DNA of 64,000 bases from Candidatus Firestoneibacteriota bacterium (GCA_038042445.1 JBBTED010000072.1:6287-70286), one strand, 5' to 3'; shown: positions 56,401-62,400, counted from the first letter of the stretch. Numbers are program-made.

Positions 56401-59400
56401 TATAGAAATTTACTTTCGATGGCTAAATTATTACAATAATTTTACTTTGCTGGAGACATTGAAACCAGATAAACGCCTATGCTTATAAGTACTATTCCCA
56501 GCAATTTAAATGGTGTTATTGCTTCTTTAAAAACCAGCCATGAAACAAATAAAATTATTACATAACTCGATGCCATAAAACTGTTTGCTATTCCAAGAGG
56601 TATTCTTGAAACAACTGCAAGCCAGAACACACCAAACAGCAATCCCATAAATAGTCCAATTAGAACATATATATTTGATAAAACTTTTCCTGCTTCGCTA
56701 AATAAATTTCCGTATTTTAATGATATTTCTCCAATTTGAAGCAACCCATAACGCAAAGCAACCTGACCTATTACAACAGATGCAACACAAAGAGCTACTG
56801 CTAAAAATGAATTCATCTTTTCCTCCTTTTGTTAAAAATTATTTTTTGGAATATGGTTTTAAATGCCATATATTGGCATTATTATATATTAATGATTTTT
56901 AAAAAACAAGAAATATGGGATGTAAAATTCCCCCTTAATCCCCCTTTAATAAAGGGGGCAAGTAAGAAGAAAGGAGAGAAAAATACTTATTTTAATCTTA
57001 CTGTTTAGTGGTGTGGTCTTCTATGGCTTTTAAGAATATTGGACCGTATTCTTTTAGTTTAGTCTCTCCGATTCCGAATATTAAAGACATATCTTCATTG
57101 TTTTTGGGCTTTTTTTCTGCCATTTCTCTGAGAGTCTTATCGGAAAATACTATATATGCCGGCATATTTTTTCTGTCAGCTATAGTCTTTCGAAGAAGCC
57201 TAAGTGTCTCAAAAAGATTTTTGTCAACATTGATATATTCTGATTTTAAAGTACTTCTTTGTTTCTTTTTAATCTCGGCTTTTTTCTTTCTGTCTATTAC
57301 TCTTGTTAATTTCGGTTTTAAATCTCCAAAAAGTATTTTCTTGCCGTCATCTGTTACAGAAAGAGTTAAATAGTCTCCTGTTCTTTTTAAATACCTTTGT
57401 GCAATAAGCTGGTCAATCATAGAACGAATTGCGCGCTTTGTTTCACCACTCATTACACCAAATGATGACATTGCATTATGCCCCCATCTCGAAATATTAT
57501 CAGTAAGATTGCCAATGAGAATATTAGAAATATGCTCAGCACCGAATCGCTCTTTAACACCGGATACGCATATAATAATATTTTTTGCAAATTCCACTGA
57601 CTCATCAATACTACTTATTTCATTAAGACAAAAATCACAAAATCCGCAGTTTGCTTTAAGATAACTTTGTCCAAAATACTCAGATAAGAATGAATGTCTA
57701 CATACAGGAACCGAACAAAAATTATATATCTCCCCTAATTTCTTATGCGAGCTATTACCGGACATTGACTTTTGAAATATATATTCCCATATCCTAAAAT
57801 CTGCCCCGGAATAAAACAAATAACAGTATGACGGCAACCCATCTCTTCCTGCACGTCCTGTTTCCTGTTGGTAATGTTCTACTGATTTTGGCATAGCTGA
57901 ATGTATAATAAAACGAATGTTTGATCTATCAATCCCCATTCCAAATGCGATTGTTGCAGTAATAATATTTACCTTTTCCGTTGCAAACATATCCTGATTT
58001 TTCTTTCTTTCCTCATCGCTAAGCCCAGCATGATAAGGAAGATTAGCATACCCGTCTTCATTAAGAGCCTTTGATATTTCATCTACATCAGTACGTTTAA
58101 GACAATAAATTATTCCCGCCTGATTATTATGCAATTTTAAAGTATCAATTATTTGTTTATACCCATCCCCATTTCTTTCCGATAATCTGTATGTAAGATT
58201 GGGCCTGTCAATTTTTCCAACATAGACATGCGGCTGAGCAAGTTTTAGTTGTGCCAATATATCATTTTTAACTTCTTCGGTTGCTGTAGCAGTAAAAGCA
58301 TGAATGTTTATTCCAGAAAATTTATTTTTAATCATACTTAACTGCCTGTATTCCGCCCTAAAATCATGCCCCCACTGGCTTATACAATGAGCCTCATCTA
58401 TCACAAAATACGATGTCTTGATAGATTTCAAAAGGTTCATCATAAATTCTGTCATAAGTTTTTCGGGAGAAATATAAAGAAGCTGGACATTACCTGTTTT
58501 AATTTTCTCAATAACTTCACGCCCTTTTACCATAGTCAATGCTGAATTTAAACATTCTGCTTCAACACCAATATCTTTAAGAAAATCCACCTGGTCCTTC
58601 ATCAAAGATATAAGAGGAGATATTACTACAGCCGTGCCGTCAAGTATTAAAGCAGGAATTTGAAAACACACTGATTTTCCTCCTCCTGTAGGAAGAATTG
58701 TAAGTGTGTCATTGGATTCCAATATTGACATTATCGCCTCTTCCTGAAATTCCCGAAAGGAATTATAACCCCAATATTTATTTAATATTTCAAGTATTTT
58801 TTCTTTCATCGGAAGATATTTTTTCTTGTTTTTGTAGAGACAGGCTTGCCTGTCCATTTATTGGGCGGGTAAACCCGCCCCTACGCTTGTTTTCCTTGTA
58901 ATTTGTATAATTTTATAATTTCCTGGACTGTAGTGGCGTCTTTTGGGTCCTTATCACGCCTTATAAATGTTACAATTCTTGGGAAACGCAAGGCATAACC
59001 TGAACCATCGCCCTCTTTTCCACAGGTATGAACAGGACTTCTGGTAATTTCATCTGCCTGAACTTCTACTACATATTTGGGATAAACCCATACATCTGGT
59101 TCAATTTCTGAAATAATCTGTTTGTCTTTTTCTTTAGTTTTAATTTTTCCCAGCATAGCAAATAAATCAATCCATTCCTCTTCAGTTAAACCTGAACCTA
59201 TTTTCGCAATGGTTTTAAAATTATCTTCTTTACTGTCATAAACTGCAGTTAAAACAGAGCCTATTCCGAATTTTGCTCTGTGTCCCTGCCCTACTAAATA
59301 TCCCACTATAATACAATCCACTGTATCAGCAAGTTTAACCTGATAACTACGTTTGAGTTTTATCCAATTAAAATTTCTCCCTCCTGCCTTATATGATGAA

Positions 59401-62400
59401 TCAAGTCTTTTTGCTACTATCCCTTCTAACCCACGAGTTATAGCATCGTCAAAAATTTTAGCTAATTTATCAGGAGTATCTACTATTTGTGTTTCTGACT
59501 CTTTTAAGATTTCACCTTTGCCCAATATTTCTTTTAATTTTTCTCTTCTTTCGACATAAGATAGCCCTGTTAAATCTTCATCATCTGCATAAAGCAAATC
59601 AAATATAAAAAGCTGTAAGGGATATTGCACCATTTTTTCTGCTATATCATATTTTCTTTTTCTTTTGACAGTAACCTGAAACGGCAGACATTCCCCAGTT
59701 TCAGGATCATACGAAAGTGCTTCGCCTTCAAATATTGCAGTTTTGACTTTTACTTGTTTTAAAACAGCGCTAACTATATCAGGAAACATTTTTGTGTTAT
59801 TTTCAAGATTTCTGGAAAATATTTGGACGTCGTTTTTGTTTTTATGAACCTGACATCTAAATCCATCATACTTTGGTTCTACTGCACAGGTTCCGATTTT
59901 TTTTATGATATCCTCAGGTGAAGAAAGTCTTTCAGCTAAAGCAGGCCTTATTGGATGGCCTACAATAATTTTAAATTTTTCAATTTTTTCTTTTCCTTCT
60001 ATAAATAATGTCTTTGCAACTAACCCTAAATCTGAACATCTATTATATGCCTGCTCTAATTCTTTTCTTATACTTTTATCACCAGTATGCGCAAAAGATA
60101 AAGCATCAAGAATTGTAGGGTCTCCTATTCCAAGCCTTAATGTAGCAAGTGGTATTCTAACTGCATATCGGACACCATTTTTACCTATGTCTTTAAACAG
60201 CTGCGCCAAGATTTCTGTTTTTTCTTTTACTACTCCATCTCCGCTTATAGAAGTTAAAACATAAAGTTTTTCATAAACATCTTTTATAGTCAAATTTTTA
60301 CTGCTTTCTAATGCCAATTCTTCTGCAGCTAATCCATAATCTCCAAGTTTTTGAAAAAGTGTCCGAATTTTTTCTTCTGATTTATCATACGCAAGAGAAA
60401 TTGCTTTTTCAGTTAATTTTTCATTTATCCCAAATTCAACTTTCTCAAATGCAGGCCTTAATTTTTCCTGACAGAAATACACGATTTTATCAAGCTCATC
60501 TAATGAGCATTCTTTAAAAAGTCTGGATAAAATCTCCACCATCTCATTGCGTTTAGGTGTTAATTCTATTTTTTCAAAATATTGAGCTAATTTAGAAAAT
60601 TTCATGTTTTGTATTTTTTGTAGTGGTAGTCGCAAGCTTTAGCTTGCGGTATTGTTTTTCGCAGGCTAAAGCCTGCGGCTACCATTATGACACAGTCTAA
60701 ATGTCACAATTTTTTATCGCACGAGTTTCAACATTCCTCTCACTGCTTTATCTAACCCCACTAATGAAGCACACGCTATAATACTATGGCCAATACTGAA
60801 TTCCTCTATTTCTTTTATTTTCGCAACTCTTGCTGTATTTTTATAATTTAGACCATGCCCTGCATTTACTCCTAATTTTAATTTTTTTGCGAAAACTGCG
60901 GATTTTTTTATCTTGTAGTATTCAATATTTTCTTCTTTTTTAGTTTTAGCATCTGCATATTTGCCTGTGTGTATTTCAATAAAATCTGCACCTAATTGAG
61001 ATGCGAACTTTATCTGTTTTAAATCAGGATCAACAAACAAACTAACTTTTATTTTATTTTTTTGAAAATTTTTGATAACTGGTAATAAAGTTTTATAATT
61101 TTTAATTACATCAAGCCCGCCTTCTGTTGTTAATTCCTGTCTTTTTTCCGGAACTAAAGTTACCCAGTTTGGCTTTATCTCAAGTGCTATATTTATAATT
61201 TCATCAACTGCAGCCATTTCAAGATTTAATTTTGTCTTAACTATTTCAGAAATTAATTGGACATCTCTGTCTTGTATATGTCTCCTGTCTTCTCTCAAGT
61301 GAATTGTTATTCCATCTGCACCTGCAAGCTCCACAATAATAGCTGCAAATACAGGATCTGGCTCTATTCCACCTCTTGCCTGCCTTATAGTTGCAATATG
61401 ATCTATATTAACATTTAGTTTTGCCATTTAAAGTAAATTCTTAATTGTAGTCGCTGATTTATCAGCAATGCCCATAAATGGGCAACTACAAATAATTATA
61501 TTTTTATTTAACCAAATCGATATTTATAGTTATTTTTTTGGGATTTATTCCTGTAACTTTAACACCCTGTGGTACTAATATATCAGATGATGTAAGTTCA
61601 TACACATTTCTACCACGTTGTACAAACTTTAAATCCAGATGTGCTTTTATTTCACTAACACGCAATGATTTCACAACATCATGCTGACCATTTAATCGCA
61701 CTGTAACAGTTGTAACCACATCACCTGTTATAATATAATTTGTCGGAATATTATGTATTTCCAGTGGCACTTCAAATACAACATCTGAAGTATTAAGACC
61801 TGTAGCATAAAGCCACAATATTAATGCAATACAAACTGAAAATATTTTTAATCCAAAATCAGTTCTTAACCATAACCTTACACTTCTAAAAATTTTTACT
61901 ATAGTATTTATCATTTTTCTAATTTGGGGCCATAAAGTACTAACATTTCTTCAAGTGTATTTTTCTCTATTGCCGGTGTTATATTTCCATTCATAGCCAA
62001 AGATATAGTTTTCAATTCTTCTGATATAACAACCACTATTGCATCTGTTTCCTCAGTTACACCAAGTGCAGCACGATGACGCATTCCAAGTGCTTTATCA
62101 ATATTTGTGTTTTGTGTCAGAGGCAAAACACATCCAGCAGCCACTATTCTGCCATTTTTTAGTATTACTGCTCCATCATGCAATATTGTCTTTGGAAAAA
62201 ATATTGTCAATAATAATTCAACACTTAATTCACTATCTAATTTTGTCCCTGTATCTATGTAATTTTTAAGACTTGTTTCTCTTTCTATTACTATAAGCCC
62301 GCCAATTTTCTTTTTTTTCATCACTCCTGATGCTTCAGCAATTTTATGATAAATCTCACTTTCATTTTTAAAAAGAAATGTTCTGAATAATTTCCTTCTG

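Follow-up and report, generated by a model that had tools for sequence, protein, structure and literature searches.

The groundwater bacterium analyzed here, a member of Candidatus Firestoneibacteriota (genome G000), seems to rely on an archaeal-type DNA ligase, and the same swap appears in dozens of genomes of five other phyla. Comparison of sequences makes it very probable that this ligase was gained horizontally and that the NAD-dependent ligase LigA was then lost, so that the acquired enzyme seals Okazaki fragments. The gene lies on the minus strand at 58881..60605 of the 64,000-nt stretch of DNA that was analyzed (the window). Because the window corresponds to C72:6287-70286, these coordinates differ from the numbering of contig C72, in which the gene occupies positions 65167-66891.

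The ORF spans positions 58881-60635 on the minus strand, and an ATG at 60605, which matched the N-termini of all homologues in the alignment, yields a protein of 574 aa. As the first-pass annotation had described, three Pfam domains were recognized in it, all above cut-off and all on the minus strand: the N-terminal DNA-binding domain PF04675 (aa 2-170; 60096..60602), the nucleotidyltransferase (adenylation) domain PF01068 (aa 221-418; 59352..59945) and the OB-fold domain PF04679 (aa 447-552; 58950..59267). The order DNA-binding domain, nucleotidyltransferase and OB fold is that of the archaeal/eukaryotic replicative type. In addition, the protein scored 435.2 bits with TIGR00574 (dnl1), for which the cut-off is 217.8, and the S. 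solfataricus ligase 2hiv aligned with it over the full length (E 2e-123). Motif I (KYDGFR) was located where it had been annotated before, with its lysine at residue 245 (codon 59871-59873). Residues K245, D247, G248, R250, E293-E295 and F335 were invariant among 29 bacterial members of the clade, as were E394, G395, K399, W414-K418 and R540-R543, the last of which belong to an invariant LRFPR that closes the OB-fold domain. We take these conserved blocks to be motifs I, III, IIIa, IV, V and VI, LRFPR presumably being motif VI. The gene is intact and has kept all of its catalytic motifs, and its product is predicted to be an ATP-dependent ligase of the archaeal/eukaryotic replicative type with a 'Lig B' architecture. 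We infer the use of ATP from the sequence; some archaeal relatives of the ligase also use NAD+ or ADP, according to the available text of PMC10244674.

Other family assignments were considered and rejected. With the Ligase D/NHEJ model TIGR02776 the protein scored 146.6 (cut-off 373.2) in a match limited to the ligase core, and the three ligase domains account for all 574 aa, leaving no room for a fused polymerase or phosphoesterase. Scores were likewise below the cut-offs of the NCBIfam bacterial equivalogs TIGR04120 (152.9 vs. 400), NF002868 (235.4 vs. 641) and NF006701 (164.6 vs. 543). The Prochlorococcus-type AD-Lig P was dismissed on the grounds that the OB domain is PF04679 and not PF14743, and that the DNA-binding domain is a Pfam-recognized PF04675.

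The 574-aa protein was the sole ligase match of the genome (one match to PF01068 at E<=1). Searches for LigA returned no match to its adenylation domain (PF01653) at E<=10, only helix-hairpin-helix matches to TIGR00575 (20.7 and 17.4 bits), and a best E of 0.3 when 12 LigA proteins from relatives were compared with the genome by tblastn. These results uphold the earlier statement that a single DNA ligase is found and that LigA is undetectable, in an assembly of 181 contigs that is 90.2% complete and has about 10% of the genome unassembled. DnaG, previously listed as missing, was not found upon re-checking, and neither was the region 2.2 motif, which we take to mark a primary sigma factor (RpoD type), in any of the six frames. 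Because the metagenome-assembled genome (MAG) is 90% complete and is without DnaG, the absence of LigA alone is weak evidence. The missing tenth of the genome, which would include DnaG, could also hold a single-copy ligA, in which case the ATP-dependent ligase would be an accessory repair enzyme. The completeness of the MAG and the failure to find DnaG and the RpoD-type motif, hence the loss of essential genes from the assembly, speak for this explanation; we nevertheless regard it as unlikely, for reasons that include the distribution of the two ligases. In the class, PF01653 was found in 12 of 13 genomes, G000 being the only negative, so the earlier claim that all 12 other class genomes possess LigA was correct. 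Across the phylum the domain occurred in 93 of 99 genomes (it went undetected in 5 of 98 besides G000), and among high-quality genomes in 59 of 60, the one negative again being G000. PF04675, reported before as absent from the 98 other genomes of the phylum, was indeed present in 1 of 99, namely G000. The two ligase types are therefore complementary within the phylum, and G000, the only carrier of the archaeal-type ligase, is at the same time the one high-quality genome that lacks LigA, which argues against a gene that was simply missed.

The regions in which ligA would be expected also argue against a missed gene. The first-pass annotation had considered the synteny around ligA to be unconserved in the class, but in fact it is partly kept: an outer-membrane barrel gene, here called X, followed ligA in all eight relatives examined. 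The orthologue of X in G000, a reciprocal best match in 5 of 5 relatives, is found in the interior of C11, a contig of 32.7 kb, where a PorV-like gene precedes it, with no ligA beside it. The order tig-clpP-clpX-ligA of G012 is represented in G000 by tig-clpP-clpX followed by TPR genes, inside a 140-kb contig (C21), and the order DUF4912-GH57-ligA of G001-G003 by DUF4912-GH57, after which come another barrel gene and rho, in the interior of a 79-kb contig (C67). Three ancestral neighbors of ligA (X, clpX and GH57) were thus assembled within long contigs that lack it, and tblastn revealed no LigA fragment at any contig end. Since X is rearranged on both sides in G000, these anchors demonstrate the absence of ligA from its former sites but not from the genome as a whole.

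All 80 of the best ligase loci, including those left unrun earlier, were then covered, and 65 bacterial genomes were found to carry a ligase 48-59% identical to that of G000. PF01653 was missing from 60 of these 65 carriers, whose completeness is not given and some of which are small (1.1-1.4 Mb). The trend reported before (46 of 50 carriers without LigA) was therefore sustained, while the count of PF01653-positive carriers changed from 4 of 50 to 5 of 65; the full-length LigA model TIGR00575 was above cut-off in 4 of 50 carrier genomes. In Dictyoglomota, PF01653 was found in 0 of 11 genomes and the ligase was shown in 10 of 11; two genomes of this phylum with contigs of >=1.3-1.5 Mb were without LigA, and the sampled genomes include what look like closed ones from cultured strains. 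G064, a one-contig chromosome of 4.6 Mb, carries the ligase and has no LigA by either PF01653 or TIGR00575. As background, 145 of 150 sampled Omnitrophota possessed LigA and none possessed PF04675, and no homologue of the G000-type ligase was found in the five that were LigA-negative; non-detection of LigA thus amounts to 3-5% (5/150 Omnitrophota, 5/98 in the phylum of G000), as opposed to 60 of 65 among the carriers. The vast majority of other bacteria with a ligase of this clade are thus without LigA. The 60 LigA-less carriers do not represent 60 independent events, because the lineages are related, and both ligases were present in five carriers (G061, G065, G066, G067 and G071). Coexistence of the two enzymes is therefore possible, and this counts in favor of a LigA that was missed in G000; however, when miss rates of 5-10% and coexistence priors of 8-50% were assumed, the posterior for that explanation was 0.4-9%.

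The ligase gene sits between pdxJ and recQ, and a re-reading of the gene neighborhood gave the same placement as before. The recQ gene (56998..58857, minus strand; DEAD, Helicase_C, RecQ_Zn_bind, RQC and HRDC domains) begins 23 nt past the ligase stop, and pdxJ (60714..61427, minus strand) is the last gene of a co-directional string, folP, cdaA, YbbR-like and pdxJ, upstream of the ligase. The adjoining recQ would fit a repair role, as would the HhH-GPD, RecJ, UvrC and UvrB genes seen beside some homologues. Against an accessory repair enzyme, the Lhr/MPE operon that marks Lig B of the repair type is absent: neither Lhr nor MPE nor an exonuclease is encoded beside the ligase in G000, and Lhr or MPE repair genes made up 0 of 115 flanking genes of its homologues in 65 bacterial loci.

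That C72 or its ligase segment was mis-binned or is chimeric, having come from an Omnitrophota-like or archaeal neighbor in the same sample, would also account for a foreign ligase, and is in our view highly improbable. The nearest ligases are those of Omnitrophota, and the threonyl-tRNA synthetase (ThrRS) on C72 is 64% identical to that of the class relative G012 and 57% identical to that of an Omnitrophota genome, a narrow margin. The region downstream is island-like, with a toxin-antitoxin pair, Fic, a restriction methylase and an SNF2/PLD helicase, and this too would suit a foreign segment. The neighboring recQ, however, is 88% identical to that of G012, 61% to that of G007 and 50% to that of G020, with no counterpart found in G014. 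The recQ and ligase genes were spanned by a 3715-nt contig, and their junction was bridged, with 0 differences, by a contig from an independent study. The gap that separates the ligase stop from the start of recQ holds a GC-rich hairpin (GGGCGGG-TAAA-CCCGCCC; 58863..58880) that belongs to a genome-wide, REP-like repeat with 513 such hairpins in the genome (on C21, 38 vs. 0 after shuffling), so that a repeat family of G000 itself flanks the ligase. Composition was genome-typical as well. G+C values of 31.2% (C72, a contig of 70,286 bp) and 33.0% were obtained vs. 31.9% for the genome, in agreement with the native G+C noted earlier for this 70-kb housekeeping contig; in tetranucleotide usage C72 ranked 14th of 68 contigs, with the ligase region at the 52nd percentile. 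Finally, the ligase occupies a long private branch (0.42-0.5) with no near-identical donor. The DNA carrying the ligase is native to G000. A second GC-rich hairpin (CGCAGGC-TAAA-GCCTGCG; 60660..60677), with about 115 copies in the genome, separates pdxJ from the ligase and is adjoined by a weaker one; at this hairpin the contigs of all four runs break and the depth spikes.

Phylogenetic analyses placed the G000 ligase as sister to a small group of Omnitrophota ligases (support 99/98, and 97 and 96 in two quick trees). Its clade, which contains bacteria, DPANN archaea and extra copies from 3 of 41 Thermoproteota, was separate from mainstream Thermoproteota (100/100). In each of four phyla, namely Chloroflexota (16 rows), Dictyoglomota (10), Aquificota (7) and Nitrospirota (20), the ligases fell into a single group and occur in stable housekeeping contexts; within phyla, the gene is mostly inherited vertically. 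In rooted trees the bacteria/archaea label had to change 2-3 times, and the acquisition by G000 is a separate event. The first-pass annotation had proposed that this ligase displaced LigA repeatedly. Displacement is supported by the 60 of 65 carriers, the long contigs, the low background and the synteny, whereas 'repeatedly' is only partly shown, given 2-3 label changes and inheritance that is mostly within phyla.

Taken as a whole, the preferred reading is that an ancestor of the G000 lineage acquired the ligase, whose closest relatives are those of the Omnitrophota group, by horizontal transfer, and that LigA was lost afterwards; we infer this order of events. With LigA lost, the archaeal-type enzyme would be the sole DNA ligase of the cell, and as the sole one it would have to join Okazaki fragments, on an otherwise bacterial replisome, and close repair patches too. 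The replicative role is thus deduced from necessity. DnaA and DnaN are present in G000, PCNA was not found there, and neither a bacterial-specific terminus nor an obvious clamp motif was seen at the termini of the ligase. By analogy with the family, Lys245 would be adenylated by ATP, AMP would be handed to the 5′ phosphate at the nick, and attack by the 3′ OH would close the nick, with the DNA encircled by the three domains.

More broadly, we think it likely that ligases of this clade are the sole, and therefore replicative, ligases of whole bacterial lineages, comprising all sampled Dictyoglomota, subsets of Chloroflexota, Aquificota, Nitrospirota and Omnitrophota, and the G000 lineage. If so, at least six phyla, rather than one odd genus, break the rule that NAD-dependent LigA is the replicative ligase of bacteria, and an archaeal fork enzyme would operate on a bacterial replisome without PCNA. 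A published account of an archaeal-type, multi-phylum replacement of LigA was not found in the literature.

Among known systems, the archaeal replicative ligases (S. solfataricus Lig1, 2hiv; Pyrococcus/Thermococcus, 2cfm and 3rr5) have the same DNA-binding, nucleotidyltransferase and OB-fold domains and the same motifs as the G000 ligase, and mainstream Thermoproteota ligases are ~40-45% identical to it. They seal Okazaki nicks with ATP, as would be expected of the G000 enzyme. Their host differs, G000 being a bacterium with DnaN and without PCNA; in Sulfolobus, according to the available text of PMC3321178, coupled Okazaki maturation in vitro needs the ligase PIP motif bound to PCNA, a partner that is missing in G000. 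Bacterial Lig B shares the Pfam architecture of the G000 ligase, and the available part of PMC7470946 describes it as an accessory repair ligase encoded in Lhr-MPE-exonuclease clusters and always additional to LigA; it groups about half of the bacterial Lig B sequences with the replicative ligases of archaea and suggests that archaea were the source. In contrast to that description, the G000 gene lies between pdxJ and recQ, and LigA was not found in this 90% complete MAG or in 60 of 65 carriers. The rule that bacteria always need LigA already has a published exception in a different ligase family: AD-Lig P (Pmar-Lig) of high-light Prochlorococcus marinus, an ATP-dependent replacement of LigA inferred by comparative genomics (bioRxiv 10.1101/2020.05.11.089284). 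That enzyme has the OB-2 variant PF14743 and a DNA-binding domain without a Pfam annotation, as far as the available part of PMC7470946 describes it. AD-Lig P occupies the exact ligA slot, with truncated LigA genes left, whereas the G000 ligase is at a new site with no LigA remnant; moreover, AD-Lig P is limited to one genus and has been assayed, whereas the G000-type ligase is archaeal-type and spread over several phyla. Lastly, NAD-dependent LigA (TIGR00575) differs from the G000 ligase in family, cofactor and domains (Ia, Zn finger, HhH and BRCT), and its sealing of Okazaki and repair nicks is the function that the G000 ligase has probably taken over.

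The window covers positions 6287-70286 of contig C72, and the coordinates in the first-pass annotation count along the window. The ligase ORF spans positions 58881-60635 of the window on the minus strand and, from an ATG at 60605 that coincides in the alignment with the N-termini of all homologues, encodes a protein of 574 aa (g01440). The Pfam domains DNA_ligase_A_N (PF04675; aa 2-170), A_M (PF01068; 221-418) and A_C (PF04679; 447-552) were each recognized far above cut-off, and the NCBIfam model TIGR00574 scored 435 bits (cut-off, 217.8); the NCBIfam equivalogs for bacterial Lig B, C, and D all remained far under theirs. 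The nearest solved structure was that of the replicative ligase of S. solfataricus (2hiv; E 2e-123, full length). Residues K245, D247, G248, and R250 of the KYDGFR motif, together with E293-E295, F335, E394, G395, K399, W414-K418, and R540-R543, are invariant in 29 aligned bacterial members of the clade, and on this conservation the enzyme looks fully functional. Two other sole-ligase genes are interrupted: in an Aquificaceae MAG (L044:4469-6183) two ORFs make up the ligase, one of them for the A_N domain, and in a Dictyoglomota genome (G093:C56:6453-8174) a TAA lies within the match. Either may reflect a frameshift or a sequencing error.

On the minus strand the gene order is folP, cdaA, a YbbR-like gene, pdxJ, the ligase, and recQ (56998-58857), which begins 23 nt past the ligase stop codon. 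Beyond recQ lie an EamA fragment, a BrnT/CopG pair, and more island-like genes. The island-like stretch 3′ of recQ (35191-56273) includes this BrnT/CopG toxin-antitoxin pair and also encodes a Fic protein, a methylase resembling Eco57I, and a PLD-SNF2 helicase, so that the ligase sits where a housekeeping operon borders on a flexible region. No gene for Lhr, MPE, or an exonuclease was found in its surroundings. The spacers that flank the ligase, pdxJ, and recQ carry GC-rich hairpins with TAAA/TTTA loops, at 58863-58880 and 60629-60677 on the two sides of the ligase and at 56932-56958 and 61467-61494. They belong to a REP-like, genome-wide family of 513 hairpins, ~115 of which read CGCAGGC-TAAA-GCCTGCG; one contig (C21) holds 38 such hairpins, vs. 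none once shuffled. Metagenome contigs end at these hairpins, and depth there spikes up to 1300-fold. In addition, a contig from an independent run (X4), whose join has 66 letters on its shorter side, links the ligase start straight to the region upstream of pdxJ and omits 826 bases (60605-61432); this junction may represent a strain variant without pdxJ here or a repeat-driven assembly path.

g01440 was the sole match to PF01068 in the genome. For LigA, the adenylation domain PF01653 gave no match in the MAG at E≤10 (control genomes were positive in 11 of 14 cases), the full-length model TIGR00575 returned just two helix-hairpin-helix matches of 20.7 and 17.4 bits, and tblastn with 12 LigA proteins from relatives reached a best E of 0.3. 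The observation made in the first-pass annotation, an intact archaeal-type ligase as the only ligase found in a genome with no detectable LigA, was thus confirmed by Pfam, TIGR00574, PF01653, TIGR00575, and tblastn. The genome is a MAG of 2.81 Mb in 181 contigs, with a completeness of 90.2% and a contamination of 2.2%. Neither DnaG (TIGR01391) nor, in a six-frame scan, the region 2.2 motif of the primary sigma factor was found in it, and the usual dnaG-rpoD region is probably within its unassembled part. Essential genes are therefore missing from the assembly, and the absence of LigA from this one genome proves little by itself.

The distribution of LigA in the phylum and among other carriers of the ligase bears on the same question. 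PF01653 was found in 93 of 99 genomes of the phylum and in 59 of the 60 of high quality, the single high-quality negative being our MAG; completeness is 61-86% in the remaining five negatives. Of the 13 genomes in the class, 12 encode LigA. PF04675 occurs in one of the 99 genomes, again this one. Carriers elsewhere were taken from the best 80 loci with a 48-59% identical ligase, which by record title are 65 bacterial and 15 archaeal. Among these, PF01653 was present in 5 of 65 bacterial carriers (1/50 plus 4/15) and in none of the 15 archaeal ones. TIGR00575, applied to a set of 50 genomes (48 bacterial carriers from among the 65, and two further Dictyoglomota), exceeded its cut-off in four, the same four as PF01653; the fifth positive carrier, G071, was outside this set. 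One carrier without LigA (G064) has a 4.6-Mb chromosome in a single record. LigA is missing from all 11 Dictyoglomota genomes, the ligase having been demonstrated in ten; in two of them (1.9-2.0 Mb) the matches lie 1.3 and 1.5 Mb into contig 1, consistent with closed chromosomes. As background, LigA was found in 145 of 150 sampled Omnitrophota and PF04675 in none of them. The LigA-negative five (0.7-2.3 Mb), in which no homologue of this ligase was found either, were taken as incomplete genomes. Overall, LigA was undetected in 92% of genomes with this ligase vs. 3-5% of those without it (Fisher test, p = 4e-48, descriptive only as the genomes are non-independent). The 60 LigA-less genomes come from five phyla by record title, with the lineage of our MAG in addition; being related, they do not amount to 60 independent events.

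The first-pass annotation held that synteny around ligA is not conserved in the class, and this required correction: conservation is partial, with ligA followed directly at its 3′ end by a FadL/PorV-like barrel gene of ~292 aa in eight loci (G001-G003, G006, G007, G009, G010, and G012). The best match to this gene in the MAG (C11:9811-10713) has the ligA-adjacent copy as its own best match in 5 of 5 relatives, and is located in the interior of a contig of 32.7 kb, preceded by genes for a PorV-like protein and a T9SS cargo protein. The order in G012, the closest relative, is tig-clpP-clpX-ligA-barrel gene; in the MAG, tig-clpP-clpX is followed by two TMEM260-like TPR genes in the interior of a 140-kb contig. 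In G001-G003 the order is DUF4912-GH57-ligA, and in the MAG DUF4912-GH57 is followed 4 nt later by an unrelated barrel gene and rho, in the interior of a 79-kb contig. This GH57 locus was considered as a clean deletion scar of ligA and rejected, the barrel gene there being no homologue of the ligA-adjacent one. No ligA or remnant of it was found at the three ancestral sites. All three are rearranged, so that ligA may have moved into the unassembled part of the genome; a rough Bayes estimate puts the chance that ligA is present but was missed at 0.4-9%. The interpretation that this type of ligase displaced LigA is thus supported by the phylum, the other carriers, and synteny.

A rival reading has the ligase segment binned wrongly into the MAG. 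The G+C content of the gene is 33.0% (genome, 31.9%), the tetranucleotide usage of its contig (C72) ranks 14th among the 68 contigs that reach 10 kb, and among 510 windows the recQ-ligase-pdxJ stretch falls at the 52nd percentile. RecQ shares 88% identity with its counterpart in G012 and 61% with that in the class relative G007, and the ThrRS encoded on C72 is 64% identical to that of G012 vs. 57% to that of an Omnitrophota genome. Moreover, a 3715-nt contig from a possible source run (public groundwater metagenomes) covers recQ and the ligase, and a 565-nt contig from an independent study bridges their junction with zero differences. None of the 14 runs listed is an RNA run that contains this sequence. 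Based on composition, these identities, and the metagenome contigs, mis-binning is unlikely. Between the MAG and G012, the identity of RecQ far exceeds that of ThrRS (64%), ClpX (68%), ClpP (77%), and DnaN (44%), and the surroundings of recQ are variable and defence-like in both, which suggests that recQ was exchanged recently within the class. Since MatE precedes recQ in G012, the insertion site of the ligase is not mappable from recQ.

Phylogenetic analyses were performed with LG+G4, the root being a single archaeal phylum, which limits them. In a tree of 83 clade members (three partial rows were left out), four phyla each contributed a single group of ligases (Chloroflexota, 16; Dictyoglomota, 10; Aquificota, 7; Nitrospirota, 20), and g01440 was sister to an Omnitrophota group (SH-aLRT 97). 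A careful 38-row tree, with which a quick 65-row tree agreed, supported this pairing at 99/98, a surrounding bacteria-only group of 14 at 100/98, and the separation of the whole clade from mainstream Thermoproteota ligases at 100/100. With the Thermoproteota as outgroup, archaeal copies branch first and the bacterial ones divide into two groups. A ligase 39-45% identical to g01440 occurs in most sampled Thermoproteota; 3 of 41 (G078, G082, and G335) carry an extra, 50-54% identical copy of the clade (L124-L126), beside a mainstream 44% copy in G082 and G335 and beside copies of 31-33% identity in G078. The clade therefore moves among archaea too. Homologue neighborhoods were stable within phyla and housekeeping in kind: dapF in Dictyoglomota; DUF815 in Aquificota; Maf or TPR, and FAA hydrolase, in Anaerolineae; RluA, HhH-GPD, RecJ, UvrC, PriA, or ParB in Nitrospirota; and a tight NUDIX-ligase-radical SAM string in Omnitrophota (Omnitrophota-type loci L003, L009, L017, L036, L072, L080, and L022). 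In L022 the radical-SAM protein has a fused HhH-GPD glycosylase domain. The trees fit one or two ancient transfers from archaea to bacteria, after which the gene would have been inherited mainly vertically in each phylum and, at a later stage, transferred to the lineage of our MAG.

The replisome of the MAG is otherwise bacterial, with dnaA-dnaN on contig C156 and no PCNA found in the genome. As the only ligase, g01440 would seal both Okazaki fragments and repair nicks through the standard three-step ATP-dependent mechanism. ATP-dependent ligases are able to substitute for LigA in laboratory bacteria. In Sulfolobus, according to the in vitro results in PMC3321178, mutation of the PIP motif of the ligase abolishes coupled Okazaki maturation. 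Inspection by eye of the termini of 86 clade members revealed no bacterial-specific extension and no obvious QLxLF-like motif, but these ligases may still bind the clamp. The dependence of the Sulfolobus relative on PCNA raises the question of how such a ligase is recruited to a β-clamp fork. Carriers include the phylum of cultured Dictyoglomus, which would open the displacement of LigA to bench tests.

That bacteria use NAD-dependent ligases, and archaea and eukaryotes ATP-dependent ones, serves in textbooks to tell the two replication systems apart. In the passages concerned, reviews name LigA as the replication ligase of all bacteria and know of no LigA-less species (PMC5052709, 2016; PMC7470946, 2020; PMC12133292, 2025). 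That of 2020 adds that such bacteria would help explain bacterial NAD+ use, a 2023 review lists hyperthermophilic bacteria with NAD+ enzymes only (PMC10244674), and that of 2025 continues to place Lig B among the repair enzymes. Table 5 of the Dictyoglomus turgidum genome paper gives an ATP-dependent ligase only, without comment at that place (PMC5167688). The gene family is known, and what is new is that it appears to serve as sole ligase in the lineage of our MAG and in several phyla; the universality of LigA should not be assumed in marker-gene or drug-target arguments across bacteria. Our search for papers that describe bacteria with an archaeal-type enzyme as their sole ligase (without subscription journals and supplements) found none, and yielded only a 2020 preprint on a published exception, high-light Prochlorococcus (bioRxiv 10.1101/2020.05.11.089284). 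There, a ligase of another family was placed in the ligA slot within a single genus, whereas the exception described here is broad and involves the archaeal replicative enzyme itself.
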